Shown: positions 5,136 to 24,622 of the stretch, piece after piece
Layout: every line of letters begins with the position of its first letter
How positions within the stretch are numbered: the first letter of the stretch is position 1
DNA from: Paracoccus suum
GTDB taxonomy: Bacteria > Pseudomonadota > Alphaproteobacteria > Rhodobacterales > Rhodobacteraceae
Reading direction: 5' to 3'
Length of the DNA: 32,000 nucleotides
Assembly: GCF_003324675.1 (NCBI RefSeq)
Contig: NZ_CP030918.1
Location: forward strand, 1,740,001-1,772,000
Position numbers and translations under genes: made by a program
The notes under the pieces: generated by a model
Database searches by the model: none
The model's input: the letters and a program-made list of their open reading frames with translations, nothing else
Told to the model about the DNA's origin: nothing

Positions 5136-6899
5136 CTAGAGGCCCAGGCCGCGCTGGCGACCCAGGCTCCACTCGATGCCGCCATGCCCCTTGGCGACGC
5201 CGGCGATATGCTGGCCGAGCTTCTTTTCGAGCGGCGGTGTCCAGGGCACGAGCTGGAAGCCGAGCCCATTGTCGATCATGGCGAAGCGGCCCGAGGTGAG
5301 CGCGATACGCTGGCGATAGACACCGGCGACATGCTCGCCGGCCTGCGCTTTCTGGTACGGCAGTCCGTGTTCGCTCTGGAGCTTCGTGCCAACGGCATCG
5401 AGCTCGCGCTGTCGCAGCGTATTGAGGAGATCGCGTTGCAGCAGGATGCGTTGGCCCTGCCGGCGGGCAAGGCCTTCATCGGCTAGATGCTCGGCGCGCG
5501 CCTGCATGGCGTCGCGCACCTCGGCGCCGAAGCCTCCCATCGACATGGGCATCGCCTCGCGCTCAACCAGGCGATGATCCAGCCAGGTCGCGCCCGGCGC
5601 CGTGATCTGGCGGTTGAGATCGAAGTCCGATCGGTTGGCGAGCGCCAGCGTCGGCCGGGGATCGTCGGGGCCGCCGAAGCGACGTACCTCGACGATGCCG
5701 CCAATCGGGGGCGCATGCTCGAAGGCCTCGATCCCGCGGAAGCGGACATGGTGCGCGCGGCCGTCCGTGCCGTCGATCACGGCATAGGCTTCGCCGGTCA
5801 GCTCGTCATGCAGGCCGCGATCGACCAGGCGGCCAATAACGGGTGAACCCGCCCCGCCGCCGTCGATCGTGTAATCGCTGACGCCGCGATCCTGACCACG
5901 CTCGGTGAAGGCGCGGTGCATGGTCTTGATGATGTCGCCGCGAATGCCGAGATCGCGCAGTGTGCGTTCGGCCTGCAGCCCGACGGTCCATTCCCCTGGA
6001 GCGCCTTGTGCCGCGAGCTCCATCCTTTCGAGATGCTGGAGTCTGCCGATCATCAGGCGGCGCAGCGAGGGATCGGTCTTGCGGTTCGCCTCGGGGCGCA
6101 GGTCGATAAAGCCGGTCTCGTCGGCGGCGATGCGGATTTCAACATCGAGCCGTGTCCAGCGCTCGGCGGTGACTTCCTTTTCCAGCGCGTTGCGGATTTC
6201 ATGTTCGGGCTTGGGGCCGAGTTCGATGGAGACAAGATCCTCGGCGCGGGAGCGCAGGCCGCGGCTGATGTAATCGCGCGAGATGACCAGATCGGCGCCG
6301 GTCTCGTCGACGCCGCGCACAAGCAAATGCACATGCGGATTGTCGGTGTTCCAGTGATCGACGGCGACCCAGTCGAGCTTGGTGCCCAGATCCGATTCCA
6401 TCTGGTTGGCGAGGTCGCGGGTGAACTCTCGCAGATCGGTCATGTCCCCCGCGTCTTCGGGCGAGACGATGAATCGAAAATGATGCCGGTCATCCCTGCA
6501 TCGGTCGGAGAAGGCGAGATCGTCGGCGCGCTCGTTCGTCGCGTCGAACAAGACCCCCTTCTCCCCATCACGGCTGACGCCTTCGCGCTTCAGGTAGGAC
6601 ACATGAGCCGAGAGTGGCGCGGAGCGGAATGACGTGCCCTGATGGCGGACCACGCGCGCCTTGATGACGACACGGCGCGAAGCGCTGAATATGCGCGAAC
6701 GGCTGAAGCTGGTGCGTCCACGCCCGAAGGTTGAATGACCACGGCCGGCGCTTCTCTTGGCGGTCTGCCCTTCGCCAGAGCTGTGCCCGGCCTTCTTCGA
6801 GGCCCTCAGCACTTGATTGATGAAGCTCTTGGACTTGGGTGCGCGCGTGGATTTGATGCGTCCTGGGCGGACGCGGAAATCGCTGTCGCCCTCGCTCAT
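5136..6899 (-). CDS. Relaxase/mobilisation nuclease (VirD2/MOBP-like with a DUF3363-type C-terminal region)
   Basis: His-triad motif HWNTDNPHVHLLVRG, Tyr region AHVSYLKREGV and conserved N-terminus MSEGDSDFRVRPGRIK preceded by GGGAGG. The track ORF extends to 7019, but that extension has no SD and does not look protein-like. Confidence 0.9.
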   Translation of the reverse strand: MSEGDSDFRVRPGRIKSTRAPKSKSFINQVLRASKKAGHSSGEGQTAKRSAGRGHSTFGRGRTSFSRSRIFSASRRVVIKARVVRHQGTSFRSAPLSAHVSYLKREGVSRDGEKGVLFDATNERADDLAFSDRCRDDRHHFRFIVSPEDAGDMTDLREFTRDLANQMESDLGTKLDWVAVDHWNTDNPHVHLLVRGVDETGADLVISRDYISRGLRSRAEDLVSIELGPKPEHEIRNALEKEVTAERWTRLDVEIRIAADETGFIDLRPEANRKTDPSLRRLMIGRLQHLERMELAAQGAPGEWTVGLQAERTLRDLGIRGDIIKTMHRAFTERGQDRGVSDYTIDGGGAGSPVIGRLVDRGLHDELTGEAYAVIDGTDGRAHHVRFRGIEAFEHAPPIGGIVEVRRFGGPDDPRPTLALANRSDFDLNRQITAPGATWLDHRLVEREAMPMSMGGFGAEVRDAMQARAEHLADEGLARRQGQRILLQRDLLNTLRQRELDAVGTKLQSEHGLPYQKAQAGEHVAGVYRQRIALTSGRFAMIDNGLGFQLVPWTPPLEKKLGQHIAGVAKGHGGIEWSLGRQRGLGL

Positions 6900-7149
6900 G
6901 GGAGGGCCTCCCGAGACGGCGCGAAGGCGCACAGTGCCGAAAACACTGTTGAAATCGCTGGGTAAAACAGCAGTCGCGGCACGCGACCCGACCGACCAGC
7001 ACGCCAAAAGCCAAGCCATGTCAATGGCTTGTGCGAATATGGCGAGGCCCTTTTATCTCGCCGTCCTGCTGTCGTTGCTCTCTGCTCCTCCCACCCTTGC
7101 GCACAACGCTCTCTGGAACACGCCAAGCTGCGCCATGATGCGAACCGGC
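6900..7149 (+). promoter_or_regulatory. Candidate oriT / rlx promoter region
   Basis: 250-bp gap directly upstream of the relaxase gene. Inverted repeats GTCGCG-GCA-CGCGAC (6973..6987) and CAAGCCAT-GTCA-ATGGCTTG (7012..7031). Plus-strand GTCCTGC (7063..7069) resembles the MOBP nic core ATCCTG/C. Confidence 0.35.
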
Positions 7150-7935
7150 TCATTGCGGGTCTCCATCGTCGGCACGGGCAACGAAAATGCTGCCGCTTTG
7201 CACAGAATTGGCGGGACCTTCGCCCGATGACGGCGCAGTCCGGGCGTCGTTGTCTTGCGGTTCGGATACCATTTTGCGCGCATCCAGACCGTGGGCTGAC
7301 GGCGTGACGAAGAGCGGAGCTCGTCGCCAAGCGTGCGGATCGGCGGCGGCAACATCGACGGTCCCCGGTGCGGGTGGCGACAGGTGAGCCCCGCCGATCA
7401 ATGGCGCGAGCGTGGCGACATAGGCGCGGGTTTCTGCCGGAAGGGGGCGGCCCGCGAGGTATTCCTCATAGCGTCCGGGTCCAGCGTTATAGGCTCCAAG
7501 AAAGCCCGGCGATCCGTAGCTATCGTACATTTCGCGCAGATAGGCCGTACCAGCGATGATGTTGTCGCGCGGGTCGAACGGATCGCGTCCAAGGCCATAA
7601 CGGACGCGCAATTCCGCCCAAGTGGCGGGCATGACCTGCATCAGGCCCATTGCTCCCGCCGATGAGACGGCGCGCGCGTCATCGGCGCTTTCGACGCGGC
7701 GCACCGACCTGATCCAGTGTTCGGGAATACCGAAACGCTGTGAGGCTTCGGTCACGAAGGCGGCGTGAGGATCGTGGGTTGGCTGCGCGATCGACGGAGC
7801 GCTCTGCGCCAGTACGGCGAGCGGCGGCGCGGCGGAAACAGACAGGCCGGAAAGGAGGAAGAGGATGATGCACCGGGCAGCGCGAGGCCGCCCGGTTGAC
7901 ATCGGCGATGCGGGGGTCGTGCGAGCGATCCGCAT
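7150..7935 (-). CDS. Lytic transglycosylase (SLT domain) with signal peptide
   Basis: VESADDARAVSSAGAMGLMQVMPATW and AYNAGPGRY motifs; N-terminal hydrophobic signal (alternative start at 7902). Confidence 0.9.
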   Translation of the reverse strand: MRIARTTPASPMSTGRPRAARCIILFLLSGLSVSAAPPLAVLAQSAPSIAQPTHDPHAAFVTEASQRFGIPEHWIRSVRRVESADDARAVSSAGAMGLMQVMPATWAELRVRYGLGRDPFDPRDNIIAGTAYLREMYDSYGSPGFLGAYNAGPGRYEEYLAGRPLPAETRAYVATLAPLIGGAHLSPPAPGTVDVAAADPHAWRRAPLFVTPSAHGLDARKMVSEPQDNDARTAPSSGEGPANSVQSGSIFVARADDGDPQ

Positions 7936-7938
7936 GCG

Positions 7939-8277
7939 CTATTCCCGTTCGCCGCGCTTCTGAGGGCGGCTCCAGTGCAAAGACCAGGAGGTCGTATCAG
8001 CCCCGTTCTGGAACAGGCGGGCACGGATCGGCTGCGCAAAGCTGGGGTCGTCGATCAGCAGTGACAGATATTCACCAGCCTTTTCGCTGGACTCCGTCCA
8101 GGCCGCGCCGATCTCCGGTGCGTTGTCATCCGCGCCGTGATGGACGCGGTAGCTCGGCGCGTTCTCGACGTCCGAGGGATCGACGGGAACGATGGTGATC
8201 TCGCGAAATAGGGTGAGCGTATGAATGCGGCCGGTGAAGCCGGATTCCTCGCGGGTGAATTCGCCGATTTGCGGCAT
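7939..8277 (-). CDS. DUF736 family protein
   Basis: MPQIGEFTREESGFTGRIHTLTL...APSYRVH...IGAAWTE...GEYLSLLIDDPSFAQPIRARLF is the characteristic DUF736 pattern found in conjugative elements. Confidence 0.85.
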   Translation of the reverse strand: MPQIGEFTREESGFTGRIHTLTLFREITIVPVDPSDVENAPSYRVHHGADDNAPEIGAAWTESSEKAGEYLSLLIDDPSFAQPIRARLFQNGADTTSWSLHWSRPQKRGERE

Positions 8278-8345
8278 GGCGGTTTCCTTTCAAGATGCGG
8301 TGGAGAAGGATTGGGCGAGCAGCGCGCCCGCCCCAGGCGAAGCGA

Positions 8346-8891
8346 TCACCGCGTTGGCGCCCGCCATTCGAAGCGGCCGTGGCCGTCCTCGTCGGTCCAC
8401 AAGGGAACCGCGCGGCCGATGACGGCGCTGGCCGGGATCGGGCCGAAGTAGCGGCCGTCCAGACTGTCGGGAACGTCCCAGTTCATGAGGAAGACCTCGC
8501 CGTCCGCGACGATCCGGCAGCCCTGCCAATCGGGGAGCGGGCGGTCGATTCGGTCGCGTTGGAGAGCCGTTCCCATCGCGACGCCGTCGACACTGATCAG
8601 GACGCCGGAGCGGCAGACGGTCTGCCCGGGAAGGCCGAGGACCCGTTTTAGGAGTGGCGTGTCGCGCGGCAGGTATCCGCCGTCGGCGAGAAAGCTCGCA
8701 ATCGGTTCCGGCGCAGTGACGGCGACCAGATCGGTGACTTCGAGCCGCTTTGCAGGTTCGACCGAATAGAAACCGATCGGGGTGCTGGCCGAGGCATTCC
8801 AGATGAGTTTGGTGGGGGCGTCGATCCACGTCGTCACGGCGATCGCGCTGGACGCTACGAACGTCGCCATGGCCCATTTGAGGTCGGTCAT
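8346..8891 (-). CDS. traF: S26-family conjugative signal peptidase TraF
   Basis: N-terminal TM segment, NASASTPIGFY serine region and DSLDGRYFGPIP box. ATGA overlap with the upstream gene. Confidence 0.9.
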   Translation of the reverse strand: MTDLKWAMATFVASSAIAVTTWIDAPTKLIWNASASTPIGFYSVEPAKRLEVTDLVAVTAPEPIASFLADGGYLPRDTPLLKRVLGLPGQTVCRSGVLISVDGVAMGTALQRDRIDRPLPDWQGCRIVADGEVFLMNWDVPDSLDGRYFGPIPASAVIGRAVPLWTDEDGHGRFEWRAPTR

Positions 8892-9409
8892 GGCACGATC
8901 CTCCGGCGCTTAAGCCACGCCTGGTGCTGATCGCGCGAGTAGCGGCGTGCGTCCTGGCCGGCGCTCAGTCGGTTGTGTACATGCCGCCAATAGTCTGGCG
9001 CGGCGTCGGCCGGATCGAGCGAAAGGGCCTCGATCGCGTCGATGAGCTGCAGCACGCGTTCGACCTTCGGCCAGCTTTCGATCTTGAGCAGGATGTCGCC
9101 GCCGGGGCGCACAAAGGGCAGCGTCTGATAGGACTCGCCGGGCGTGATGGCGCGCACGATATCGATGCGCGAGATGATCGTGCCGAAGTCGTTGGACGCC
9201 CACCGGACGAAGGCGAAAGTCGTGCCGGGCCTGAACGAGAGGACGCGGCGGCGGCGATCAAGGATCGTCTCCTGCACGTCTTGACCGAACCTGATCCAGT
9301 ATTCGATCTGCTTTTCCACCCATGTCAGCTCGACGTGGGTGAGACGGTCGGTTTGGAAAGACGACGGCATCGAGCCGCCGCGCATGCGGGGGGCCGCGAT
9401 GCCGGTCAT
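8888..9409 (-). CDS. DUF2840 family protein
   Basis: LTHVELTWVEKQIEYWIRFG...FAFVRWASNDFGT...LPFVRPGGDILL is a typical DUF2840 sequence. ATGA overlaps at both ends. Confidence 0.8.
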   Translation of the reverse strand: MTGIAAPRMRGGSMPSSFQTDRLTHVELTWVEKQIEYWIRFGQDVQETILDRRRRVLSFRPGTTFAFVRWASNDFGTIISRIDIVRAITPGESYQTLPFVRPGGDILLKIESWPKVERVLQLIDAIEALSLDPADAAPDYWRHVHNRLSAGQDARRYSRDQHQAWLKRRRIVP

Positions 9410-9660
9410 GACGGGTCTCCTGGTGATTGGGGGAATTCGCGCGCGAGCAATTCGCGAAGCATGTCGGCGACGGTGACGCCGCGTTGAAAGGCGGCGATCT
9501 TGATGCGACCGCGCACCTCCGGCGTGACGTCGATGGTCAGCCTAGCGGTGAAGCCCGTGCTGGAAGCTGGACCAGGCGACACCGGTTCGGCGGACTTGAT
9601 CCAGTCGTCTGGGTCGGAAGGACGCGCGACGAAGCCGCGCCGGGCGCTGGCTTTGGTCAT
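9406..9660 (-). CDS. Ribbon-helix-helix ParG-like partner of ParA (putative centromere-binding protein)
   Basis: Disordered N-terminus followed by RLTIDVTPEVRGRIKIAAFQRGVTVADMLRELLAREF (RHH pattern). ATGA-coupled to parA. Confidence 0.7.
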   Translation of the reverse strand: MTKASARRGFVARPSDPDDWIKSAEPVSPGPASSTGFTARLTIDVTPEVRGRIKIAAFQRGVTVADMLRELLAREFPQSPGDPS

Positions 9661-10295
9661 GGCGCCAACCTCCCGACTTCCGCAGTCAGGGCGGCGATCT
9701 CGCGCGCGGCCGCGCTATTGTCGTCGGCCTCAAAAACGAGGCACCCGGACTGTGCTAGGTCGGCGAAGGCGACACGCTGGCCGATCGTCGCCGACAGCAG
9801 GGGCGGATCGTGGTCGGCCAATGTCTCGGCGGTCTCGCGGGCGATGACGGTGCGTGCAGTGCAGCGGTTGAGTACGAAGCGAGCCATGAGTTGCGGCCGA
9901 TAGATTTGGGCCTCTGCGAGCAGCGCCAGCATTTCGGCCGAGGCCCAGCCATCGAGCGGTGACGGCTGCACAGGGATCAGGACAAGATCGGCGGCGAGCA
10001 GCGCCGAACGCATAAGACCTGCAACGCGTGGTGGTCCGTCGATGACGATGTGATCGGCGTCACGCGCGAGCTCGGGCGCTTCGCGATGAAGTGTGTCGCG
10101 CGCCAGGCCGATGACGCCGAACAGGCGAGGCAGGCCCTCGCGGGTGCGTTGCTGCGACCAGTCGAGCGCCGATCCCTGTGGGTCGGCATCGATCAGGGTG
10201 ATGCGCTTGCCTTCAAGCGCCCATTGACCAGAAAGATGCAGCGCGAGCGTCGTTTTGCCGACGCCGCCTTTCTGATTGAGAAGCGCGACGATCAT
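9657..10295 (-). CDS. parA: ParA-family partition ATPase
   Basis: Deviant Walker A MIVALLNQKGGVGKTTLALHL; 212 aa. Confidence 0.95.
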   Translation of the reverse strand: MIVALLNQKGGVGKTTLALHLSGQWALEGKRITLIDADPQGSALDWSQQRTREGLPRLFGVIGLARDTLHREAPELARDADHIVIDGPPRVAGLMRSALLAADLVLIPVQPSPLDGWASAEMLALLAEAQIYRPQLMARFVLNRCTARTVIARETAETLADHDPPLLSATIGQRVAFADLAQSGCLVFEADDNSAAAREIAALTAEVGRLAP

Positions 10296-11452
10296 TTCGC
10301 GCCTCCAGGCTCGTCGCCGAAGGTGCGATGCGCGTGGCCGGAAGAGCGGTCCGTACAGGCGGAGCTACGAAGAGCCTGATCGGTTACATGCGCTTGAAGT
10401 GATGGCTTTTTGGCCTGGTTCGGCCGCCTTCCGGCGACGTTTTCCACATCGCGCGCGCGCTCTTCAAAGTTAGATTCTTGGTTAGACTCTAAGTTAAGGG
10501 CGCGATTTCGCTTTTTGTTTCCAGAGCTTACACCCTGTTTCGGTTCCCGATAGCACGAGCCTCCGGTTCCCGATAGCACGATAGGTCGGGTTCCTGATAG
10601 CACGAGGCCGTCCACAGGTTGTCCACAGGCCGCCGATGGTTCGAAAGCAAGCAGCAACCGGCCGCCGACTTCGACCTCAAGGAACAGCGAGTAGCCAGGC
10701 AATGGCTGGCGGCGAATGATGTCGCGCAGCTCGAACGCGAAGCGTTTTAATGGCGAAAGACTGCCGGATTTCTGATGCAGGTGGCGGAAGTCGAAGCGCC
10801 AGCCATTGCGTTGTTTGCCGCCATGCTTGCGCACAATGCGGTAGAGCCAGCGATCGAGGCCTCCAGTGAGACCGAAATAGTCCCGGTCGATGGTCAGGAC
10901 GAGCGCATCGTCGAGAACGGCGCGGTAGAACCAGTCCGGCACGATCAGTTCGATGCCAGCGGGACGCCCTTGGCGATCGGTGCGCTCCTGCCATTCATTG
11001 ATCCAGGAGAAACGGTGGCGGCGTCCTTCGGCCGCTTGCCGTATTGAGGTTGCGACCGTGGTCGACTGCAGCCGGTCGAGTGCAGCCTTGAGGCGCTGAT
11101 AATCGCGCATCGATACGCCGCGACCGATGAAATTGAGGATCTCGTAGGGGGTGGCGGCCATCAGGCGCGAAGTGCGAAGACCCTTGTCGCGCGCTTCGAC
11201 GATCTGGCTCGCCGCCCAGATGAGGATGTCGGCATCCCAGATTGTGGCCATGCCATGATCGGGAACCGCCTCGACGCGGATGCTCACGTCGCCGGCGACG
11301 AAATCGATCGGCGCGGTGCGGTGTGACTTGGAGAGGGAGAAGAACGGATAGGCCATGAGGTCCTGCGCATCGCGGGGCGCGAAATCGCCAGGGAGCGCGT
11401 GGAACAGATCGAGTTGTCCGCGCTCCGGAGATGGGCGATGCCGCGTCGTCAT
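10292..11452 (-). CDS. repA: Replication initiator protein A (RPA family) with a long low-complexity C-terminal tail
   Basis: N-terminus LDLFHALPGDFAPRDAQDLMAYPFFSLSKSHRTAPIDF is typical of the family. The stop overlaps the parA start (ATGA). The last ~100 codons run across DNA repeats. Confidence 0.85.
   Translation of the reverse strand: MTTRHRPSPERGQLDLFHALPGDFAPRDAQDLMAYPFFSLSKSHRTAPIDFVAGDVSIRVEAVPDHGMATIWDADILIWAASQIVEARDKGLRTSRLMAATPYEILNFIGRGVSMRDYQRLKAALDRLQSTTVATSIRQAAEGRRHRFSWINEWQERTDRQGRPAGIELIVPDWFYRAVLDDALVLTIDRDYFGLTGGLDRWLYRIVRKHGGKQRNGWRFDFRHLHQKSGSLSPLKRFAFELRDIIRRQPLPGYSLFLEVEVGGRLLLAFEPSAACGQPVDGLVLSGTRPIVLSGTGGSCYREPKQGVSSGNKKRNRALNLESNQESNFEERARDVENVAGRRPNQAKKPSLQAHVTDQALRSSACTDRSSGHAHRTFGDEPGGAK
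10469..10498. repeat. AT-rich pocket with 12-bp phased GTTAGA(T/C)TCT / GTTAAG repeats
   Basis: GTTAGATTCT (10469..10478), GTTAGACTCT (10481..10490) and GTTAAG (10493..10498). Preceded by (GC)5 at 10451..10460. Lies ~175 bp upstream of the parA start, inside the repA tail. Confidence 0.6.
10541..10629. repeat. Iteron-like direct repeats: 3 x CGGTTCC(C/T)GATAGCACGA plus 2 x GTCCACAGG
   Basis: Copies at 10541..10558 and 10564..10581 (identical) and 10587..10605 (one substitution, one extra G), period 23-24 bp. Tandem GTCCACAGG at 10610..10618 and 10621..10629. Confidence 0.8.
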
Positions 11453-11469
11453 TGAAAAGACCGCGCGGA

Positions 11470-11751
11470 TCAGCGGGCGTGACGGCCGGCATGGGATGCC
11501 GGTGCGGGCTCATGGCGTTTCGCGGGTAGCACGCTGCCCCGCGGATCGGAGGTGGACGTCACGGCGCCGCGTTCAGCCCATGCCTCAAGCTCATTGACAG
11601 AATAAACGACGCGCCCGCCAAGCTTGCGATAGGCCGGCCCGGTGCCGTAGGTCCGGTGCTTTTCGAGGGTACGGGCCGAGAGACTGAGGAATTCGGCGGC
11701 TTCCTTGGTGCGGAGGAAGCGCGGCGGCAGGGTCGCGAGATTGGCGTTCAT
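11470..11751 (-). CDS. Excisionase-family HTH (HTH_17/MerR-like) protein; RdfS-like candidate recombination directionality factor
   Basis: FLRTKEAAEFLSLSARTLEKHRTYGTGPAYRKLGGRVVYSVNELEAWAE is a typical excisionase-type winged helix. GGAGG lies 5 nt upstream. It sits immediately downstream of the FseA-like gene. Confidence 0.75.
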   Translation of the reverse strand: MNANLATLPPRFLRTKEAAEFLSLSARTLEKHRTYGTGPAYRKLGGRVVYSVNELEAWAERGAVTSTSDPRGSVLPAKRHEPAPASHAGRHAR

Positions 11752-11886
11752 GGTGGCCTCCGTGGCTTTCGCGGGAGCCGCTGGCGATCAGCGGCGAACG
11801 AAGGCCACGGTGGCGAAGAAGAATAGCGAAGGGGGAGTGCGAACTTGGGGGGGCCTAATTCGCACACCTTGCCCTAGTAGCGCAGG

Positions 11887-12658
11887 TTACGAACGACGGC
11901 GGTGGCGAAGAAGCTTGCGGTAACCGCCGTCGATCATCGCGAAGCCGTCCTTGACCAGATCGAGGACAGCGTCCCGGAGCGCGGACGTTTTCCAGGGGTC
12001 GCTGGCAACGCGTTCAACTCCGAAAATCGCTTCGGCGATCTCGCGATAGTCGGCATTGTGCAAACGGCCGTCAGCGGCGCGCAGCATGTTTTTGAGACGA
12101 CGGCGCTGCTGCGCCGTCATCCGGCTGTCCTGTGGCACAGGCAGGCCGTGAAGGCTTCGCCAGAGTCTGATCAGTGACTGGACACGATCCAGGCTGTGGG
12201 CGTCGAGCGGAATGATGGCGGCGATGGACTGCGTCGGCTCGAGACCCGCTCTCGAGACAAGGTGCAGGCGACCGCTTCCGGTGAGAACCGATATATGCAG
12301 TCCTTCCTCTGAACTGCGGCTGATTTCCGAGCGAATATCCTCGAAAATGCGAGGGCTGACCTGCTCAATTTCCGGGGCGGGTCCGATATGGACTACGCTG
12401 GTGTCAGCTTCCGGCGTCCAGAAAACCGGTTGTTCGAGTGCATTCAGGCTCGGCCTGGCGGGGAAATCGGAGACCCCAGCGATCGCCGATCGCTTCGGTC
12501 TCAGGCCCGAGTTCGGAGGCCGTGCGGATGGAGTTTGCGTAGTCGCGCTGGTAATCGAGATTGCGCCGAAGGCACTCCCACGCCAGTGCATCTACATCTG
12601 CCCGATCGAGATAGTCGTATGTAGTTGATGATCGCCATTCTCTTGTATCGGGCGTCAT
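11887..12658 (-). CDS. fseA: FseA-like transfer activator (DUF6499 N-terminal + DUF2285 C-terminal) encoded in two overlapping frames; predicted +1 frameshift near 12460..12466
   Basis: ORF 12404..12658 (WRSSTTYDYLD...LAWECLRRNLDYQRDY...RWGLRFP) is the DUF6499 part. ORF 11887..12591 (...PVFWTPEAD...MTAQQRRRLKNMLRAADG...YREIAEAIFG...GGYRKLL) is the DUF2285 part and lies +1 relative to the first. GGAGG precedes the ATG at 12658. Confidence 0.75.
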
Positions 12659-12770
12659 TTAATCCTCCCCGTTCAGCGAATACGCGTACAGAGCGAATTG
12701 ATTCCGGGGATTCTATTTCTTGGGAAGGTTGCAAGGCGCAACAGGCGTTGCACTTGAGACAACACGGGAT

Positions 12771-13034
12771 CTAATGAGGCCGGCCGCGCCTGAGCTGCCG
12801 GTAGCCATGCTCGGTCATCCAGTGTGCGCGAGCCAGATGGCTGTCGTGGACGCGGCGAGCGCGGTCCGGCTCAGTCCTTGGACAGATGCCGAAAAGAACC
12901 TCGGCCGCTTCCCGCCAGTCTGCTCCATCTGCCTCTGCGTCCAGCAGACGTGCATAGAGTTTAATGTGCTGTCGGTCATATTCGGTGAGCGACAGCATGG
13001 AAGGGGCTTCGTCGAGGAAATCAATTGTGGTCAT
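12771..13034 (-). CDS. Small stand-alone DUF2285-like protein (QseM-like candidate anti-activator)
   Basis: The 87-aa DWREAAEVLFGI...HLARAHWMTEHGYRQLL parallels the C-terminal YREIAEAIFG...GGYRKLL of the neighbouring FseA-like protein. Confidence 0.6.
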   Translation of the reverse strand: MTTIDFLDEAPSMLSLTEYDRQHIKLYARLLDAEADGADWREAAEVLFGICPRTEPDRARRVHDSHLARAHWMTEHGYRQLRRGRPH

Positions 13035-13128
13035 TAGTCGGCACGTGACACTCTGGGATGGCGGTTGCTATTCTTAAGCACCATTACAGCGCGACGATGA
13101 CAAGCGGGAGGCGGTAGAAGGGTGGGAA

Positions 13129-13389
13129 TTACCGGACTCTGCTGCGTTCGGCTGCTTCGTGCACATCGACAAGCATAACCCCTTCGTTGCGGCCCGATCT
13201 GATGAAGGCGATTCCTTCGGCCTCAAGCGCTCTGCGGACCTGGTCGCTGGTGCTTTCATACACACGCAGTTCAGCGGCCGACTCCATGCGCTTGAGCGCC
13301 GTCAGCGAAACCTTGGCCTTGTCAGCGAGCATCTCCTGTGTCCAACCCAGTAATGCGCGCGCGGCCCGTGTTTGTCGGGAAGTGATCAT
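13129..13389 (-). CDS. XRE/Cro-family HTH transcriptional regulator (QseC-like by position)
   Basis: SRQTRAARALLGWTQEMLADKAKVSLTALKRMES is a canonical XRE HTH. GGAGG lies 9 nt upstream. Confidence 0.85.
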   Translation of the reverse strand: MITSRQTRAARALLGWTQEMLADKAKVSLTALKRMESAAELRVYESTSDQVRRALEAEGIAFIRSGRNEGVMLVDVHEAAERSRVR

Positions 13390-13399
13390 GCATGATCAC
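13382..13399. promoter_or_regulatory. Perfect 18-bp palindrome GTGATCATGCATGATCAC overlapping the XRE start codon (candidate operator)
   Basis: Read directly from the sequence. The centre of symmetry is between 13390 and 13391, and the ATG of the XRE gene is at 13389..13387. Confidence 0.6.
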
Positions 13400-13623
13400 C
13401 TCCCACCGTGCGTCAACGTCACGCCAGAACTACGACTATTATAGACGGAGTTTGAGTGGAAAGCGACCCAGAATCGGTGTTCCTAGAGATTTGACGTCTG
13501 GTCAGTGGCGGGGGCGATTCGGGCAGTGCTAGGCTCTCTCTCCGCAAGCCAAGGCGAGCAGGAGAGATTGTTCGAGGCTTATCGTGCTGCCGGGAGACGA
13601 CGACTCATGCCAGGAACGCCAGA

Positions 13624-13657
13624 CAATTAGGAAATCCCGGCGGCTTACGCCGCCGGG
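13624..13657 (-). terminator. Rho-independent terminator after ssb
   Basis: Minus sense: CCCGGCGGC-GTAA-GCCGCCGGG followed by ATTTCCTAATTG, 16 nt after the ssb stop. Confidence 0.7.
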
Positions 13658-13672
13658 CTCCCGGTATCCCGC

Positions 13673-14074
13673 TCAGAACGGGATGTCATCGTCGTCGATG
13701 AACTTGCCGTCGTCGTTCTGGGTCTGCTTTGCCCGGCTGAGGAAGTCCACCGTCTCGGCAATGATCTCGCAGCCGTAGCGCTCGACGCCCTGCTGATCGG
13801 TCCACTTGGTGTAGTGGATGCGGCCGCGAACCAGAACCTTCATGCCCTTCTCGCAATGCTGCTGGATCGTCTTGCCGAGGCCGTTGAAGGCGGTGATCCG
13901 GTGCCACTCGGTGTCCTGGACGCGATAGCCGTCCTTGTCTCGGACAACCTTGCCTTCCGAGTAGCGGGGGCGCGAGGTGGCCAGCGTGAAGTGGGTGATC
14001 GAGGTGCCGCTCTGGGTGTTGCGGGTTTCGGGGTCCTGGCCGATGTTGCCGGCAAGAATGACGATGTTCTGCAT
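13673..14074 (-). CDS. ssb: Single-stranded DNA-binding protein
   Basis: OB-fold sequence MQNIVILAGNIGQDPETR... with the canonical acidic tail DDDDIPF. ATG at 14074 preceded by GGAGA; the track start at 14128 is probably too far upstream. Confidence 0.95.
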   Translation of the reverse strand: MQNIVILAGNIGQDPETRNTQSGTSITHFTLATSRPRYSEGKVVRDKDGYRVQDTEWHRITAFNGLGKTIQQHCEKGMKVLVRGRIHYTKWTDQQGVERYGCEIIAETVDFLSRAKQTQNDDGKFIDDDDIPF

Positions 14075-14783
14075 TGTAAGTCTCCGTTGCTTCTCGAAGG
14101 GACCATCCCTCCGACGAGACCCGGCCAAGGCCGTCGGGAGACGCCAGCAAGCGCCGCCTTGGCGGCACCTCGCCCTTAAGGCCCGGAGTGGAGCGGGCAG
14201 CCGCGCTTGCGCGGCAACACGGTCCGGAGCCGCGGGGGTTGCGGTCGGAAACCGAACGGACTTAGGGGATCAGTCAGTCGGAGGGATTGGCGCCTCGGAA
14301 AGCTCACACCGGGGACGCACAGCAGAACCGTTCGTCCTTCCCGGCAACGAGGGCGCTACAGGCCCCGATATGAAACCCGCATCAGAGCGGGGTGCGCGCC
14401 GCAGGGATCGCCGTCACGAGCCTCAGCACGCCGCCAGTCGGAAGGCAAGCCGGGACCAGGACGAACGGCTATTGGGCTCCAGGATGTATGGCGTTGTTCC
14501 ACCCCGTCGGCCGAAGGTGCGATCTAGTGAATTGCAGGGCTGGAGAGCATGAAGGTTCTGGTTCGCGGACGCCACGATACGGAGGGGAACGAAGCAGAGA
14601 GTGGCGACCTTGCTAAGGCTGGAAGGGTATCAGCCGATGACCGACTTCCACAGCGGGGCCAATCGGAGCGAAGACCCTGGCAGTTACAGCGCTGGTGACG
14701 CCATTCCTCAGAGCAGGATGCCGGAAGCCCGACGGTGCAAGCCGCGCAAATTTCTTCGTGACCAGCGGCGATTCGCGATCGCA
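14075..14783. other. ~700-bp ORF-free, hairpin-dense intergenic region upstream of ssb
   Basis: No credible ORF in any frame. Hairpins at 14107..14140 (9 bp with a bulge plus inner CGGCC/GGCCG), 14153..14166 (GCCGCC-TT-GGCGGC), 14200..14215 (GCCGCGC-TT-GCGCGGC), 14230..14244 and 14375..14390. Confidence 0.6.
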
Positions 14784-15200
14784 TCAGCGAGACAGGACGC
14801 CTGTGCCGAGCGCATTGAGATTGAGCATCGCCGCTATGCCGATGAAGAGACCGCCCGCGCCGCCGAGCAGGTTCAGCATAATCGTCGAGTCGACGAAGTT
14901 CTTCGTGACGCCATGCACGAGCGCATAACCGGCGATCATCGCCGGCACCGCGAATACGGCGAGGGCGATGAGCCGCAAGGCTGGGTTCTTGGCAAAGCCT
15001 ACGACGGCGATGACCAGCGCCACGGATAGCAGCGCCGCGCCGAGGGCGGCGAGCGCCGACAGCAGGAAGCCGGCCTCCATTCCATAGACATATTGAAAGG
15101 CCGTCAGCCCGACCATGAACGGCAAGGCGTAGATGGCAAAGTTGTAGGCGATGACGCAAAGCGCGATCGTCAGGGAGATGGCAAGCAGGATGAGGGTCAC
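14784..15200 (-). CDS. Small integral membrane protein (about 4 TM helices), function unknown
   Basis: 138 aa, almost entirely hydrophobic helices. GTG start preceded by GGAGG. Confidence 0.7.
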   Translation of the reverse strand: MTLILLAISLTIALCVIAYNFAIYALPFMVGLTAFQYVYGMEAGFLLSALAALGAALLSVALVIAVVGFAKNPALRLIALAVFAVPAMIAGYALVHGVTKNFVDSTIMLNLLGGAGGLFIGIAAMLNLNALGTGVLSR

Positions 15201-15364
15201 GGCAGCCTCCGCATGAACGATTGAGGATCACCACAGGCTGCCGGATAATACGCTCCGCCTGCGACTATGCCAGTTCGCCGTTGCTGCAAATATTCTTCAA
15301 GAAAGCCATCAACCTCGTGTTCAGTCAAGTAGAGGCGGCTGGCAGGCCGCCGAGCGGCGGCGCT

Positions 15365-16333
15365 TTACGCGCCGCCGTCGAACTTCATGACTGGAATGCC
15401 GAGCTTGCGCGCCTTATCCGCAAGGTTCTCCTGAATCCCGGTGCCGGGGAAGACCAGGACGCCGACCGGCAGGACATCGAGCATGGCGTCGTTGCGCTTG
15501 AAGGGCGCGGCCTTGGCGTGCTTCGTCCAGTCGGGCTTGAAGGCGACCTGCGGCACCTTGCGACTGTCAGCCCAGCGGGAGGCGATCAGTTCAGCGCCCT
15601 TCGGCGAGCCGCCGTGCAGGAGCACCATGTCCGTGTGCTTGGCATGAACCTGATCGAGCTTCGTCCAGATCAGGTTGTGATCGTTGAAGTCCGCACCGCC
15701 CGTGACGGCGACTCTGGGACCGGCGGGCAGCAGCACCTCCGTCTCGGCCCGGCGCTTAGCGGCGAGGAAATCGCGGCTGTCGATCATTGCCGAGATGAGG
15801 TTGCGATGGTTGACCATCGAACCGCTGCGCGGCCGCCAGGGCGTGCCGGTGTGGTGCTCGAAGGCGTCCGCCGAGAGGTCGCGGAAGAGTTCCATGCTGT
15901 TGCGCCGTTCGACCAGGGTCTGTCCCTCCGCCGTGAGGCGTTCGAGTTCGACGCTCTTGACCTCGCTGCCATCCTGTTCCCGCTGAAGGCGGCGCTGCCC
16001 CTGCTCGTTGTCGTCCAGTTCGCGTTCGACCCGGTCGGCGGCGCGATGGAAGAGATTGACCGTCGACCAGAGGAGATCGTCGAGATCGGGTTCGAGGCGG
16101 GTGTCGCCGAGCGTCGAGACGAGGGCGTCGAAGATGTCTGCGACGGCTGCGGCGACGGTGTTGCCCTCCGGCAGCGGACGCGGATCGGGTTCGTCCTGGA
16201 AGGGGCGGTAGCCATAGAGCTGGAGTTCGGTGAGGACGTGATCGGTGGGGGATGAGGTGTGGACCGGCTCGAAGCCTGTGTCATCGTCTTCGTTCATCAT
16301 CGGGAGCATCCTTCGTCTGGAGACCGCGCCCAT
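15365..16333 (-). CDS. DUF2493 (SLOG/Rossmann-like) domain protein
   Basis: The C-terminal VAVTGGADFNDHNLIWTKLDQVHAKHTDMVLLHGGSPKGAELIASRWA...VLVFPGTGI matches the DUF2493 pattern common on conjugative elements. The start is uncertain (16333, 16309 or 16300). Confidence 0.7.
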   Translation of the reverse strand: MGAVSRRRMLPMMNEDDDTGFEPVHTSSPTDHVLTELQLYGYRPFQDEPDPRPLPEGNTVAAAVADIFDALVSTLGDTRLEPDLDDLLWSTVNLFHRAADRVERELDDNEQGQRRLQREQDGSEVKSVELERLTAEGQTLVERRNSMELFRDLSADAFEHHTGTPWRPRSGSMVNHRNLISAMIDSRDFLAAKRRAETEVLLPAGPRVAVTGGADFNDHNLIWTKLDQVHAKHTDMVLLHGGSPKGAELIASRWADSRKVPQVAFKPDWTKHAKAAPFKRNDAMLDVLPVGVLVFPGTGIQENLADKARKLGIPVMKFDGGA

Positions 16334-16631
16334 CGCGGCCTTCGCAGGCGTCGAAGCTCACGGGCGGGACGGCCTGGCAGCCCTCGTGCTCCCGCGAGGG
16401 CCTTGATGGCCAAGCCGGCTATTTTGCTTCGCGATGCAAAGGCGGGGCTTGCCCCGCTGGCGGAAAATAGCCGAAAGCGCAGCGCCATTGCCCGGCTGGC
16501 CCGTTTGTGAGCCGATCGCCCTCTCAGAAGGCCGTGGGCGCCCTCTCCGACGCGGGAAGGGTGTTCCCGATGATGAGTGGAGACGGCAGGCGGAGCCATT
16601 CAGAGCTTTGCCCCATCCCCCGCCGATCCTC

Positions 16632-17669
16632 TCACCCCTCCATGAACCGGCTGACGTCCACGGGATGAAGCTGATCCTTCAGGGCCGCCCGGAGGGCATC
16701 GACGCCGCGCCAGCGCAGATCCTCGTTGAAGTCCTCGCGCGCTGGCGACATCGCAACCGCTTCGATCCCGACGCTCGCAGCTCGGGCGATCAGGCTGTCT
16801 CTCGCGCCGTCCCCAGCCGGATCACGATCGCGAAGGACATAGAGCCTGCGCAGCGTCGCCGGGAACAGGATGGCGGCGAGGTGTGCGGCCGAGAGCGCCG
16901 CCAGCATCGGCATGTGCGGCAGAACCTGACGGGGCGACAGCACGGTCTCGATGCCCTCTCCGGCGACCAGCACATCGCCGGCAACGCCAAAATGGACGCC
17001 GTGTCCGAGAAGGTCGCCCATCGCCCGCCTCGGCGTTTCGACAGGCGCCTTGCCCGAGCCGTCCGGGGCGAGCCAGGTGCGGTGCGCGCCGGTCTGTCGC
17101 CCGTCAAGGTCGGTGACGGACGCGATCATCGCCGGCCAGATCTCCGTGGGCGAATGCTCGTCGGGCCGGTAATAGCACCGGGGATGGTAGCGCAGTGCGG
17201 TGCCGCCGATGAGCGACGTGATTGCCCGCCCGCTGAGGTAGATTTCCGCAAGCGTGCCGCCAATCGGCTGCGACACGGCGAACAGCCGCCGCGACGCTTC
17301 GGGCGAACCGACGGCAATGCTCGATGTCCTGCCGGTCGGTGTCCCGGTCTGTTCCGGCAAGGGATGCGGGAGACTGAGGAAACGGCGCGCTTCCTCGGCC
17401 ACATCCGTGAAATCGACGAGGCCAAGCGCCTCGCGGATGATGTCGAGCAGATCGCCATGGTCGCCGGTGGCGGCGTCGGTCCATTTCCCGGCCGGACCTT
17501 TGGGGGTGTCCCTGAGTCGGACATAGAGGGAGCGGCCGGGGCTGTTCTGCGCGTCCCCGACCTGCCAGTAATTGCCTGCCCTCCGACCGGAGGACAGGTA
17601 TTCGCGGCAGACCGCCTCGGCCTCGCGGCCGAGGCGATGCGCCAGTTCCGAGGCGTGACGCGAAGCCAT
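16632..17669 (-). CDS. Toprim-domain protein (DUF7146/primase-like)
   Basis: Toprim Glu in VAGEGIETVLS and DxD in VLRDRDPAGDGA. The N-terminal region resembles the zinc-binding/DUF7146 module. The ATG directly abuts the stop of the upstream gene (TAAATG). Confidence 0.8.
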   Translation of the reverse strand: MASRHASELAHRLGREAEAVCREYLSSGRRAGNYWQVGDAQNSPGRSLYVRLRDTPKGPAGKWTDAATGDHGDLLDIIREALGLVDFTDVAEEARRFLSLPHPLPEQTGTPTGRTSSIAVGSPEASRRLFAVSQPIGGTLAEIYLSGRAITSLIGGTALRYHPRCYYRPDEHSPTEIWPAMIASVTDLDGRQTGAHRTWLAPDGSGKAPVETPRRAMGDLLGHGVHFGVAGDVLVAGEGIETVLSPRQVLPHMPMLAALSAAHLAAILFPATLRRLYVLRDRDPAGDGARDSLIARAASVGIEAVAMSPAREDFNEDLRWRGVDALRAALKDQLHPVDVSRFMEG

Positions 17670-20600
17670 TTATGCGGCCTCCCGTTCGCCGATGCGTTCG
17701 ACCGGCCAGCGGTCGAAGAGCTTGCCGATGATTACCGGCCCCTGAGCGTCCACCGGCACGAAGAAGCGCAGCTTCCACGAGATGATCTCGTGATAGAGGC
17801 CATAGGCCGTGAGGCGCTGGCGCATCGTGTCGGTGAAGCCGGTGAGTTCGATGCGCAGCGCGCCCATGACGCGGACCCGGCGAAGCTGAAGGCCCTCGGC
17901 GAGATCGAGGATCGTCTTTCCGTCCATAAGGGCGGTGAAGGCATCCTCCGGCGTGATCGACGCGACGCCGATCGCGGTCGCGTGGGCAACCCAGGCAGGC
18001 GAAACGCGGCGGCCGATGATCCGCTCGCCAGCATCGGTCTGGAGCCGATAGACGCGGGTGGATTCGTTCGGCAACCGCTTCCAGATAGGCAACAGGAGAC
18101 CTGTCACCATATGCAGGGTGCTGTCGGAAAACTCCGGCACCTCGGCAATCTCGGCATTCCAGGCAGAGGCGAAGGCGTCCCGGTCGGCTTCGACCCAATG
18201 GGTCTCGGGCATGGTCTTGACCGGGATGTTGTGCGCTTCCGTCGGCCGGATCAGTCGGACACGGCGCTCGATCTCGCCATCGTCCAGCATGACGCTGGTG
18301 GTCGGAACCTGCACGGCGGCGCGGCCCGACCGCTCGTTTACCAACAGTACCGCGCGCGGATCGTCCAGGTTGCCTATGGCCTCCGACAGCGTGACCGGAT
18401 GGTTGCGCTTGCGCTCGATGATGGTCAGCAGGCGGGTCTGGGCGCCGGTTCGCGGATGGGTATAGATTGTTTGACGGTCGGTGACGGTAAAGCTCTCCGC
18501 TCGCAGCGTCTCCAGCCCGGCGTCATAGGTGCCCGACGCGATGGCGCCCTCGATGCGCGCCGTCAGAAGTTGCTCGAAGGCGGTGAACAGCACGCCCTGA
18601 AGCTCAATCGTCAAGGCCAGCAGCCGGTTCAGGAAGGTCGTGATGGCCGGGAGGTCATCCTTGATGCCGTTGGAGTCCATCAGCTTCAAGCCGGTGGCGC
18701 TCTCAAAGCGGTCGAGCGTGCATCCCTCGACCTTGCCGCGGACCAGCAGCAGGTAGAGCTGGCGCAGCGCGTCGCGGGCGTAATGCGATTCCAGATTGTC
18801 TTCGGGCCGAAACAGGCCCTGACCGGCGGTCTGGCGCTGGCCGCGCGTGATCGCGCCCAGGGTGTCGAGACGGCGGGCGATGGTCGAAAGGAAGCGCTTT
18901 TCGGCTTTGACGTTCGTGGTGATCGGCCGGAACAGGGGCGCTTGCTTCTGGTTGGTCCGGTGCGTTCGGCCAAGCCCCTGGATCGCAGTATCGGCCTTCC
19001 ATCCGGCTTCGAGCAGGTAATGGACGCGCAGCCGCGTGTTCCGTGCCGACAGTTCGGCATGATAGCTGCGGCCTGTGCCGCCGGCGTCGGAGAACACCAG
19101 AACCTGCTTGCCGTCGTCCATGAACGCTTGGGTTTCGGCCAGGTTGGCCGAAGCTGCGCGATTCTCGACGACAAGGCGATCAACAGTGACGCCCTTGCCA
19201 GCCTTGCGGATGATGCGCCGCAACCGGCCCGTCACTTCAGCCACGGTATCGGTGCCGAACTGCTGGATGAGCTGGTCCAGCGCACCGGGGACCGGCGGCA
19301 GGCTGGCGAGCTTTGCGATCAGCTCGTCGCGGCGGGCGACCGCTTCGCGGCTTTCGACGGGCCGGCCGTCGCGCATGACGGGCCGCGATGACGTATTGCC
19401 CTCCGAGTCGGTGAACGGCTCGTAGAGCTGCACCGGGAAGGAATGGGCAAGGTAGTCCAGGACATATTCCCTCGGGGTGATGTCCACGCGGACGTCGTTC
19501 CATTCCTCGGTCGGCAGCTCGGCCAGCCGGCGTTCCATAAGCGCCTCGCCGGTCGAGACGATCTGGATGACGGCCGAATGGCCCGCCTCCAGATCGGCTG
19601 CGATGGAGCGGAGCAGCGTCGGGGTTTTCATGCTGGTCAGGAGATGGCCGAAAAACCGCTGCTTGGCCGACTCGAAGGCCGAGCGCGCGGCGGATTTCGC
19701 CTGCCGATTCAGGGTGCCGGTGCTGCCGGTGATATTGGCCGCTTCCATCGCCGCATCCAGATTGTTGTGAATGATGGCGAAGGCCCCGGCATAGGCATCG
19801 TAGATGCGGGTCTGTTCCGGGGTCAGCTCATGCTCGACCAGCTCGTATTCGACGCCGGCGAAGGACAGCGACCGGGCGGTGTAGAGGCCGAGGGCGCGCA
19901 TGTCGCGGGCCAGAACCTCCATCGCCGCGACGCCGCCGCCCTCGATGGCCTCGACGAATTCGGTCCGCGTGGCGAACGGGAAATCCTCGCCGCCCCAAAG
20001 GCCAAGGCGCTGGGCATAGGCGAGGTTGTGGACCGTAGTGGCGCCGGTCGCGGAGACATAGACGATGCGGGCGTCCGGCAGGGCGTGCTGGAGGCGAAGC
20101 CCGGCTCGGCCCTGCTGGCTGGCGGCGACATCGCCCCGTTCTCCCTTGCCGCCTGCGGCGTTCTGCATCGAATGCGCCTCGTCGAAGATGATCACTCCAT
20201 CGAAATCCTCGCCCAACCATTCGACGATCTGCTTGACGCGGGAAACCCTATCGCCGCGGTCGTCTGAGCGTAGCGTGGCATAGGTCGTGAAAAGGATGCC
20301 TTCGGGCAGCGTCACGGGCTTGCCCTGCGGGAAGCGCGACAGCGGCGTAACCAGGAGGCGCTCCATGCCGAGCGCCGACCAGTCGCGTTGTGCGTCTTCC
20401 AGCAATTTGTCGGATTTGGAGATCCAGACGGCCTTGCGGCGGCCCTGCATCCAGTTGTCGAGGATGATGGCGGCGGATTCCCGACCCTTGCCGACGCCGG
20501 TGCCGTCACCGACGAAGAAGCCTTGCCGGAAGCGGACGGCGTTCTTGGCGTCCTCGGCCGCCGCGCTGACCACATCGCAGGTCTCGTCGACGGTCCAGGC

Positions 20601-22173: not shown

Positions 22174-22818
22174 TCAACCGAAGCGGCGGCCGGTTGCCGT
22201 GAACGTGTATTCGTTGGCGGTGATCGCCTCGTCGACGGCCTCGTCCGAGGTGAGATACTCGTATTCGCGTTCGAGCTGCCGGTAGAGCCAACGGGCCAGG
22301 TCGCGCAGCGCCTCGGCCACGGCGTCTTCCGCATCGGCCGTCATATCCTGATAGGTTGGACTGTCGCGCTCGACCGAGATCGTCATGCAGTATTCGTGGT
22401 AGTAGTGACCGCGATGGCTCGCCTCGGCGCGAAGCTGGTAGAAATTACGCCGCTGGACCGCCTGAAGCGCCTCGGCGATGCGGTGCAGTTCGGCGTCTTG
22501 CGGCGCGTGTTCCCTGATCCGGCGCGGGGCGTTTTTCCGGTAGGAATAGAAGGTCTCGAAGCAGGCGCCGTCGCCCTGGCTCCAGAACCCCCGAAACCAG
22601 ATGCAGGGCTTCTGCCGGGAGCCGACGCCGTTGAGCCGCATGCTGCGGGTTTTCAGCCGAAGGCCGAGGATTTCCGCGATCTGTTGGAAATCCTCGTAAA
22701 CGGCATCATACCAGTCGTAGTCGAAGCCGCCTTCGCGATACCAATCGCGGGCCTTCTCCTTGGCGGCGTCAGCAAGCTCGTCGAGCTGATAGACCGTGGT
22801 TTCGATGACCTTACTCAT
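22174..22818 (-). CDS. Conserved conjugative-element protein of unknown function (214 aa)
   Basis: MSKVIETTVYQLDELADAAKEKARDWYREGGFDYDWYDAVYEDF...CIWFRGFWSQGDGACFE. GGAGG lies 8 nt upstream of the ATG at 22818, which overlaps the upstream gene by 8 nt. From memory this family is sometimes labelled an antitoxin-like stability protein; I cannot verify that here. Confidence 0.7.
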   Translation of the reverse strand: MSKVIETTVYQLDELADAAKEKARDWYREGGFDYDWYDAVYEDFQQIAEILGLRLKTRSMRLNGVGSRQKPCIWFRGFWSQGDGACFETFYSYRKNAPRRIREHAPQDAELHRIAEALQAVQRRNFYQLRAEASHRGHYYHEYCMTISVERDSPTYQDMTADAEDAVAEALRDLARWLYRQLEREYEYLTSDEAVDEAITANEYTFTATGRRFG

Positions 22819-23227
22819 CTGAGCCGCCTCCATCGAGAACCTGGGCGAGCCAGCCATCGGTGTAGGTCCATGCCACCGTCTCGCCGGTGGCGAGGTCGAG
22901 GACATGAGCGCCGCCGCCGAAACCGTCGAGGCGTGGCCGCGAGCAGGTGTTGGCGTATTGGAAGCCCCAGAGACCACTGAGGCGGAACTCGGTCGCGCAG
23001 ATCTTCACGAACCGCAGCAGACGCTCGGGATCGCCTGTCTGGTCATCGCGCATCCAGAGCCGGGCACCCCCGTGCTCCGGCTGGATCGATAGGAGAAACC
23101 CCTCGGACGGCGGTTCGTCGGAAGCGCCTTCCTCCGAAAGCTTGTTGTAGAGGTCAAGCGCTCGGGCGGCATTATCGGGCGTGCCGACGTCAAGCAGGCA
23201 CGAGAAATGGGTAAAGTAGTTGGCCAT
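22811..23227 (-). CDS. Hypothetical protein (138 aa)
   Basis: MANYFTHFSCLLDVGTPDNAARALDLYNKLSEEG..., ATG at 23227 preceded by AGGAG. The N-terminal part of track ORF 22811..23527 is a spurious extension. Confidence 0.65.
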   Translation of the reverse strand: MANYFTHFSCLLDVGTPDNAARALDLYNKLSEEGASDEPPSEGFLLSIQPEHGGARLWMRDDQTGDPERLLRFVKICATEFRLSGLWGFQYANTCSRPRLDGFGGGAHVLDLATGETVAWTYTDGWLAQVLDGGGSDE

Positions 23228-24536: not shown

Positions 24537-24622
24537 CGCAGGATGCTCCAGGACGGGCGCCGGGAGCTCTCTCTCCGGCAACCAACCCGTCACGGAAAAC
24601 CCGTCCGCACTCTCACTCTCCC
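24537..24622 (-). promoter_or_regulatory. Conserved structured leader element, copy b
   Basis: mRNA sense: GGGAGAGTGAGAGTGCGGACGGGTTTTCCGTGACGGGTTGGTTGCCGGAGAGAGAGCTCCCGGCGCCCGTCCTGGAGCATCCTGCG-ATG. Confidence 0.7.

Follow-up and report, generated by a model that had tools for sequence, protein, structure and literature searches.

A two-frame FseA-family activator gene of a conjugative element in Paracoccus suum, with a predicted +1 ribosomal slip on UUU_C

The window, that is, the whole stretch of 32,000 nucleotides of the Paracoccus suum contig NZ_CP030918.1 that was analysed, carries on its reverse strand the two domains of a putative transfer activator in two overlapping reading frames, and the question raised by this locus is whether, and by which step, a single protein is made from them. 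Very probably, the locus encodes an activator of the FseA family, belonging to a conjugative element of the ICEMlSymR7A/Tn4371 type and made by a +1 slip of the ribosome on UUU_C. An event of this kind is already known, and the present locus adds one more example to the FseA +1 frameshifts described in the literature. The +1 frameshift site of the FseA family was reportedly described by Ramsay in 2015. The parts of the gene are as follows.

12663..12670, reverse strand: Shine-Dalgarno sequence GGGGAGGA for the frame-0 start (ATG 12658), by direct reading of the sequence.
12464..12658, reverse strand: frame-0 part of fseA, M1 to F65, with the DUF6499 domain and its AWECLRRN motif (PF20109).
12461..12478, reverse strand: predicted +1 recoding motif UGG GGU CUC CGA UUU CCC, composed of a G-rich Shine-Dalgarno-like run, a rare CGA and the slippery UUU_C (logo of 68 contexts).
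12463, reverse strand: base skipped by the proposed slip.
Up to stop 12404, reverse strand: unshifted frame-0 extension, a non-conserved tail of 19 aa (4-119 codons in relatives).
11887..12462, reverse strand: +1-frame part of fseA, P66 to S256 plus stop, with a middle domain and the DUF2285 extended-turn helix-turn-helix (PF10074).

Three-frame translation and the list of open reading frames demonstrated that the frame-0 ORF (ORF1) extends from 12658 to 12404 on the reverse strand, starts with an ATG at 12658 and encodes 84 aa, and that the +1 frame of the same strand, which is free of stops between 12594 and the stop codon 11889..11887, contains its first ATG at 12591; the overlap of the two frames amounts to about 190 nt. 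ORF1 matches PF20109 (DUF6499, now 'Trans_reg_dom') along the full length of the profile (positions 1-60 of 60) with an E-value of 1.9e-23, and the +1 ORF matches PF10074 (DUF2285, now 'RovC_DNA-bd') likewise along its full length (positions 1-107 of 107), with an E-value of 2.8e-35. The arrangement that the earlier note, made from the letters alone, had described, namely a DUF6499 half and a DUF2285 half lying in frames 0 and +1 with an overlap of this length, is confirmed by the translations, the ORF list and Pfam. A predicted fusion of 256 aa, joined at ...WGLRF-PARPSL..., matches both PF20109 and PF10074. Its frame-0 part contains LAWECLRRN (residues 25-33), which resembles the AWEFLRRN-like alpha-2 motif, and its DUF2285 part (residues 148-256) has a pI of 11 and a net charge of +8. 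The predicted junction peptide of this fusion is RFPARPSLNALEQPVFWTPEADTSVVHIGPAPEIEQVSPR, or sub-peptides thereof, and is identical whether the slip occurs on the Phe or on the Pro codon. The AlphaFold2 model obtained for the fusion with a 5-sequence alignment was of poor quality (mean pLDDT 60), only the DUF2285 part being confident, and it therefore gives no support for interdomain packing.

The junction was compared across related loci. Genomes were scanned, one for each species, which provided 80 loci, to which one locus from a plasmid record and the window itself were added, making 82 loci. The same 0/+1 split is present at the same codon in 80 of them, the switch always coming after the peptide WGL(R/Q)F, and the two single-ORF loci are L011 and L058. 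The match strength of both domains is far beyond chance. When the fusion was used as the query of a protein search, most matches corresponded to the C-terminal part only, with a query cover of about 60-77%, as expected when gene callers split such a gene, and single-ORF proteins with two domains were few. In the alignment of four of the latter (P0004, P0027, P0029 and P0050) with the fusion, no indel is present at the junction. An alignment with single-ORF DUF6499-DUF2285 homologues had been proposed in the earlier note as a way of placing the junction; the junction turned out to be colinear with them, and the predicted 256-aa fusion (...WGLRFP-ARPSLN...), which contains both Pfam domains, was upheld.

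Two of these single-ORF relatives keep recognizable traces of the two-frame form. Indeed, (i) P0004 (L082/L083) carries TGG GGT TAC GAT TTC GCC, which is the motif of the two-ORF genes minus one G of the G-run and reads WGYDF, and (ii) P0050 (L084/L085) keeps CGA TTT CCC in frame and has a compensating change a few codons downstream. The nucleotides CGAUUUC are thus retained in both, and by their sequence the single-ORF relatives look derived from the frameshift motif. These differences point to an interconversion of fused and frameshift-dependent forms through single-base indels beside the site.

In the mRNA of the window, the junction reads UGG GGU CUC CGA UUU CCC CGC, with UGG GGU CUC CGA UUU C at 12478..12463 and CGA UUU CCC CGC at 12469..12458, which is exactly the position given in the earlier note. 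A logo of 68 distinct sequence contexts, anchored on the UGG codon, has the consensus UGG GG(G) YUN CGA UUU C(C/G)C, in which UGGGG is invariant. In brief, (i) the slip tetranucleotide is UUU_C in 62 contexts, UUU_U in 5 and UGU_C in 1, (ii) the codon 5' of the slip is CGA in 57, CAA in 7, CGC in 3 and UGC in 1, (iii) the Gly codon is GGG in 52 of the 68 contexts, and (iv) the frame-0 codon after UUU is CCC in 32, CGC in 29, UCC in 4 and another codon in 3. In the window's Pfam-supported ORFs, taken as background, CGA represents 5.9% of Arg codons (84% at the motif), UUU 13% of Phe codons (99% at the motif) and GGG 10% of Gly codons. Since codons that are rare in the background are kept at the motif, synonymous choice is constrained at the nucleotide level. 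Furthermore, the position of low conservation (wobble) is the third position of the frame-0 codons up to logo position 14 and the third position of the +1 codons from logo position 18, and this shift between positions 14 and 18 places the frame change inside UUU C(C/G)C.

At 12467-12469 of the reverse strand and at the matching position of L001-L081, the codon is mostly the rare CGA, with the counts given above for the 68 distinct contexts, and this constraint may belong to the recoding signal. A possible role for the constrained CGA or CAA 5' of UUU_C is that the weak I:A pairing of the tRNA leaving the E site could favour the slip. In two Xanthobacter spp. loci (L070 and L073), CGA UGU CGC is found in place of CGA UUU C and the +1 arrangement is kept; these may be inactive copies or may use another route.

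Some features of the site speak against the slip on UUU_C as the best explanation: the slip codon is separated from the Shine-Dalgarno-like run by 6 nt and not by 3 nt as in prfB, the G-run in the window is GGGGU whereas GGGGG is usual in the family, and no conserved RNA structure was predicted around the slip site with RNAalifold on the 68 sequences. The segment of the window at the slip site likewise folds no better than shuffled sequences (z -0.7). The frame-0 CCC after UUU is not a rare codon, so that there is no obvious hungry A-site codon to explain a pause.

The earlier note had attributed the event to the next codon, with a peptidyl-tRNA-Pro on CCC re-pairing on the overlapping CCC (CCC_C). 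The prediction that the two halves are joined by a +1 shift stands, the site and the motif matching those of published FseA; the assignment of the slip to tRNA-Pro does not. CCC_N is a +1-prone sequence in bacteria, UUU CCC C is present in the window and in its closest clade, and the product would be identical, because both slips yield RFPARP and leave the predicted protein unaffected. However, CCC is the next codon in under half of the contexts, and CGC, which is unable to re-pair, occupies this place in the 29 contexts listed above, so that a Pro slip cannot be the family-wide mechanism; UUU_Y is found in 67 of the 68 contexts. In R7A, the site was mapped to UUUC, where tRNA-Phe shifts from UUU to UUC downstream of a conserved G-rich region with an efficiency of 4-13% (PMC4755241). 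It was also reported that an SD-like UGGGGG codes for WGL and that about 61% of 4709 curated homologues have a conserved +1 PRF site (Jowsey 2023, PMC10359603), and conservation of the site across alpha-, beta- and gammaproteobacterial homologues is stated in the literature. From the sequence comparison, the conserved slip of the family is accordingly assigned to UUU_C and tRNA-Phe, as published, CCC_C with tRNA-Pro being non-conserved. A slip taking place mainly on CCC_C, or shared between both adjacent codons, is unlikely as an account of the locus. In the clade of the window a second shift-prone codon may follow the first, giving UUU_CCC_C, and a minor Pro contribution is possible there.

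A reading in which the locus consists of two separate genes, one for a small DUF6499 protein and one for a DUF2285 protein translated from a start of its own (ATG 12591 or an internal GTG), agrees with the annotation pipelines, which still name two genes, a 'DUF6499 protein' and a 'DUF2285 protein', and with the presence of an ATG at 12591 in the +1 frame. This ATG, however, lies inside the DUF6499 ORF, 42 codons upstream of the conserved sequence, no Shine-Dalgarno sequence comparable to that of the frame-0 start was seen ahead of it, and the leader that follows it is not conserved. Among the relatives, the N and C parts are conserved but the frame-0 tail (4-119 codons) and the +1 leader (7-63 codons) are not, either in sequence or in length. 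In 36 of the 68 contexts, there is no ATG, GTG or TTG in the +1 frame between the last stop and the junction, and the first +1 start past the junction is found between 2 and 125 codons in, where it would cut off conserved residues. With +1 starts that are variable or absent, the DUF2285 half has no conserved start of its own. The earlier note had named halves that are always separate, each with its own start, as a finding that would speak against a joined product; the contexts lacking an upstream start and the colinearity of the single-ORF forms over the junction show another picture. In addition, no bona fide DUF6499 domain has been reported without an adjoined DUF2285 domain (PMC10359603). 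Taken together, the existence of two independent genes is very improbable.

Even less credit can be given to an artefact or to decay of the gene, that is, to an indel introduced into T3C4 by sequencing or to a pseudogene formed by a frameshift mutation. The short homopolymers at the junction would be compatible with it. However, an identical split is present in three independent assemblies whose contigs are 97-98% identical to the window at the nucleotide level, so that neither an indel from local sequencing error nor an inactivating mutation private to this locus can account for it; in addition, the split is shared by the 80 loci mentioned above, which come from many genera, the synonymous positions of the motif are constrained, and each half is under protein-level conservation in its own frame. 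Slippage of the RNA polymerase on T3C4, giving a transcript one base shorter and the same protein by a non-ribosomal route, is just as implausible: nothing specific favours it, the sites at which transcriptional slippage is known are far longer than runs of 3 U or 4 C, and the C-run is not conserved. The published event was moreover described as ribosomal and was measured with reporters and protein products (PMC4755241).

The proposed +1 slip of the ribosome on UUU_C is compared hereafter with known systems. The closest is FseA (msi172-msi171) of ICEMlSymR7A from Mesorhizobium japonicum R7A, which was also the comparison drawn in the earlier note. FseA of R7A has the same N-terminal DUF6499 domain with AWExLRRN and the same C-terminal DUF2285 domain, its halves likewise lie in frames 0 and +1, and the slip takes place at WGL-R-F on UUU_C after a G-rich SD-like run. 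Both systems also share a hexamer inverted repeat of the box type, spaced by about 15-16 bp, upstream of rdfS, and homologues of QseM and RdfS. The domains, the motif and the QseM/RdfS neighbours all agree with an FseA-type identity and with the published +1 PRF site (PMC4755241, PMC10359603). Differences from R7A, whose FseA is known here from its published description, are nevertheless apparent. The motif is AWECLRRN here and AWEFLRRN there. In R7A, fseA is located within a quorum-sensing locus in which qseC and qseM are divergent (PMC4755241), whereas the XRE gene, the qseM-like gene, fseA and the rdfS-like gene are adjacent on one strand here (11470-13389, reverse strand), fseA lying directly upstream of the rdfS-like gene and in the same direction. 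More distantly, RovC of Yersinia (6XZ5), an activator of a type VI secretion system (T6SS), belongs to the same two-domain fold family, with weak matches on the AWECLRRN helix and on the DUF2285 HTH; the similarity is remote (E 8e-4), no requirement for a frameshift has been reported for RovC, and its target is a T6SS and not the transfer of a mobile element.

Regarding the slip itself, prfB (RF2) is a known parallel. There, too, a P-site tRNA shifts by +1 onto an overlapping cognate codon (CUU_U, against UUU_C here), stimulated by a Shine-Dalgarno-like G-run located upstream. Unlike prfB, the present site has no in-frame stop and no obviously slow A-site codon, and its SD-like run is at 6 nt, against 3 nt in prfB. 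The purpose would also differ, being the limitation of an activator here and autoregulation by termination efficiency in prfB.

The genes surrounding fseA are consistent with this identity. The ones that matter for its regulation are listed below.

13129..13389, reverse strand: XRE-family HTH gene upstream of the qseM-like gene, QseC-like by position (PF01381 HTH_3, E 8e-6).
12771..13034, reverse strand: qseM-like gene for an 87-aa DUF2285-only protein, predicted FseA antiactivator (PF10074; PDB 7UQT).
11470..11751, reverse strand: rdfS-like gene for an HTH_17 winged-helix excisionase/regulator, first of the transfer operon (PF12728; PDB 8DGL).

The product of the rdfS-like gene matches RdfS of M. 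japonicum R7A (PDB 8DGL) with an E-value of 5.8e-10, and that of the qseM-like gene matches QseM (PDB 7UQT) with an E-value of 2.3e-18 over 75 aligned residues. With the PF01381 match of the XRE gene, these results bear out the regulatory context that had been proposed, i.e. an RdfS-like gene downstream and a stand-alone DUF2285 protein and an XRE regulator nearby. The qseM-like product lacks DUF6499 and has a net charge of -2 and a pI of 6.3, against a pI of 11 for the DUF2285 part of FseA; QseM is likewise a DUF2285-only protein, acidic to neutral in contrast to the basic DUF2285 of FseA. As a difference from QseM, the gene is located just upstream of fseA and in the same direction, and TraR, the second known target of QseM, is not among the ORFs scanned. 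No LuxR/LuxI (TraR/TraI) homologue was found among the approximately 30 ORFs scanned against Pfam; the upstream signal may be unlike that of R7A or may lie beyond the window, past which the element may extend. Many elements with FseA and QseM have no quorum-sensing genes (PMC4755241). NCBIfam contains no model for FseA, QseM or RdfS.

From 11751 to 3114, the genes are ordered as follows: HTH_17, RPA (repA), ParA, RHH, DUF2840, S26 peptidase (traF), DUF736, SLT, a relaxase (RlxS-like) and TraG. The relaxase scores 576 bits with the RlxS model of NCBIfam, which is below the cut-off of 850 bits. Upstream, the genes code for an SSB, a SLOG protein, a Strawberry-notch helicase, a ParB-like protein and ArdC. 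The order described for ICEMlSymR7A/Tn4371 elements is rdfS ... traF - SLT - rlxS - traG, non-symbiosis members having repA and DUF2840 after rdfS and before traF (PMC8627217), and by its gene order the backbone of the window is that of the non-symbiosis ICEMlSymR7A/Tn4371 group of ICEs and plasmids. No integrase or att site was found in the window, and the tRNA and Rfam scans of the window were empty.

Three contigs (L001, L002 and L003), from Methylopila jiangsuensis, a Sphingobium MAG and Enterovirga aerilata, have the same split and share with positions 5890-18664 of the window 10.2-12.8 kb of conjugation/regulation backbone at 97-98% nucleotide identity. This identity over such a length suggests that one element spread recently across alphaproteobacterial orders. 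Sizeable ORFs that have no Pfam match are located at 14784-15200, 22174-22977, 23439-23906, 23979-24593 and 28805-29749, all on the reverse strand; the translation of the first one (14784-15200) is strongly hydrophobic.

Two further elements are predicted between fseA and the rdfS-like gene.

11837..11865, reverse strand: candidate FseA box, inverted repeat GTGCGAA-N15-TTCGCAC (pattern and conserved position).
11756..11814, reverse strand: predicted structured leader of the rdfS-like mRNA (folding and covariance model).

The candidate box starts 21 nt past the stop codon of fseA, since fseA is immediately followed by the rdfS-like gene in the same direction, and lies about 86 nt upstream of the ATG of the latter, whereas this distance is about 62-67 in the logo that was published. 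Many relatives have, at approximately this position, an inverted repeat whose hexamers are separated by 14-17 bp, and from one clade to another both arms vary in step (GTGCGA/TCGCAC, GGGAGA/TCCCCC and TGAGGG/CCCTCA). The published FseA box consists of inverted hexamers 15-16 bp apart beside a -35 element (PMC10359603), and the sequence of the candidate box fits this architecture. A scan of 11400..13700 for sigma-70 and terminator patterns returned nothing useful.

The leader is predicted to fold in three tiers with a minimum free energy of -39.2 kcal/mol (z -6.2): an outer stem, formed by GCC.CCGUGGC and GCCACGG.GGC, in which the Shine-Dalgarno sequence GGAGG would be paired, a middle stem that varies, and the hairpin GCCGCUG/CAGCGGC at the apex. 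Of 43 distinct leaders from homologous loci, 41 were predicted to adopt this fold. A covariance model, searched against 71 sources, gave in 63 of them one strong sense-strand match directly downstream of fseA, antisense scores being much lower. Double-sided changes were counted in 16 leader pairs against 9.3 ± 1.1 in shuffled alignments (0 of 500 reach 16), in an alignment that was fitted to the model and leans toward structure; slid controls had far lower covariation than the leader. The many G-U pairs argue for an RNA on the sense strand. The element corresponds to no Rfam family, and the paper on the structure of RdfS makes no mention of a leader, a hairpin or a UTR (PMC11963761). On the folding and covariance models, the rdfS-like excisionase may be gated at translation as well as transcription, through a leader that pairs its Shine-Dalgarno sequence. 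Put more broadly, two post-transcriptional layers could be added to the published scheme, a CGA/CAA stimulator within a three-part linear motif and the SD-sequestering leader of rdfS; this proposal is tentative and rather less likely than not.

The preferred mechanism, a +1 slip on UUU_C, could operate as follows. Translation from the ATG at 12658 would mostly yield an 84-aa DUF6499-only product ending at 12404. In a minority of passes, the peptidyl-tRNA-Phe on UUU (12466..12464) would re-pair on UUC (12465..12463), likely helped by the upstream SD-like UGGGGU and by the rare CGA just 5' of UUU. After the slip, CCC GCC AGG ... would be read in the +1 frame, giving the 256-aa protein. Full-length FseA, probably as a dimer, would bind GTGCGAA-N15-TTCGCAC just past its own stop codon and thereby switch on the promoter of the rdfS-like gene and of the transfer operon (repA, parA, DUF2840, traF, SLT, rlxS, traG). 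The 87-aa QseM-like protein would block this activation by binding to the DUF6499 domain. It is by analogy with R7A that the shift is taken to be ribosomal and of an efficiency as low as that measured there, and that DNA binding and antiactivation are expected of these proteins.

In summary, the comparative data settle which codon carries the conserved slip, and UGGGGN-YUN-CGA-UUU-C is specific enough for the automatic repair of split annotations. Two testable additions arise from this locus, the constrained CGA codon and the predicted SD-sequestering leader upstream of the rdfS-like gene, which may both take part in the control of this element. The published FseA +1 frameshift limits the activation of ICE excision and transfer, a rare slip keeping transfer off in most cells.
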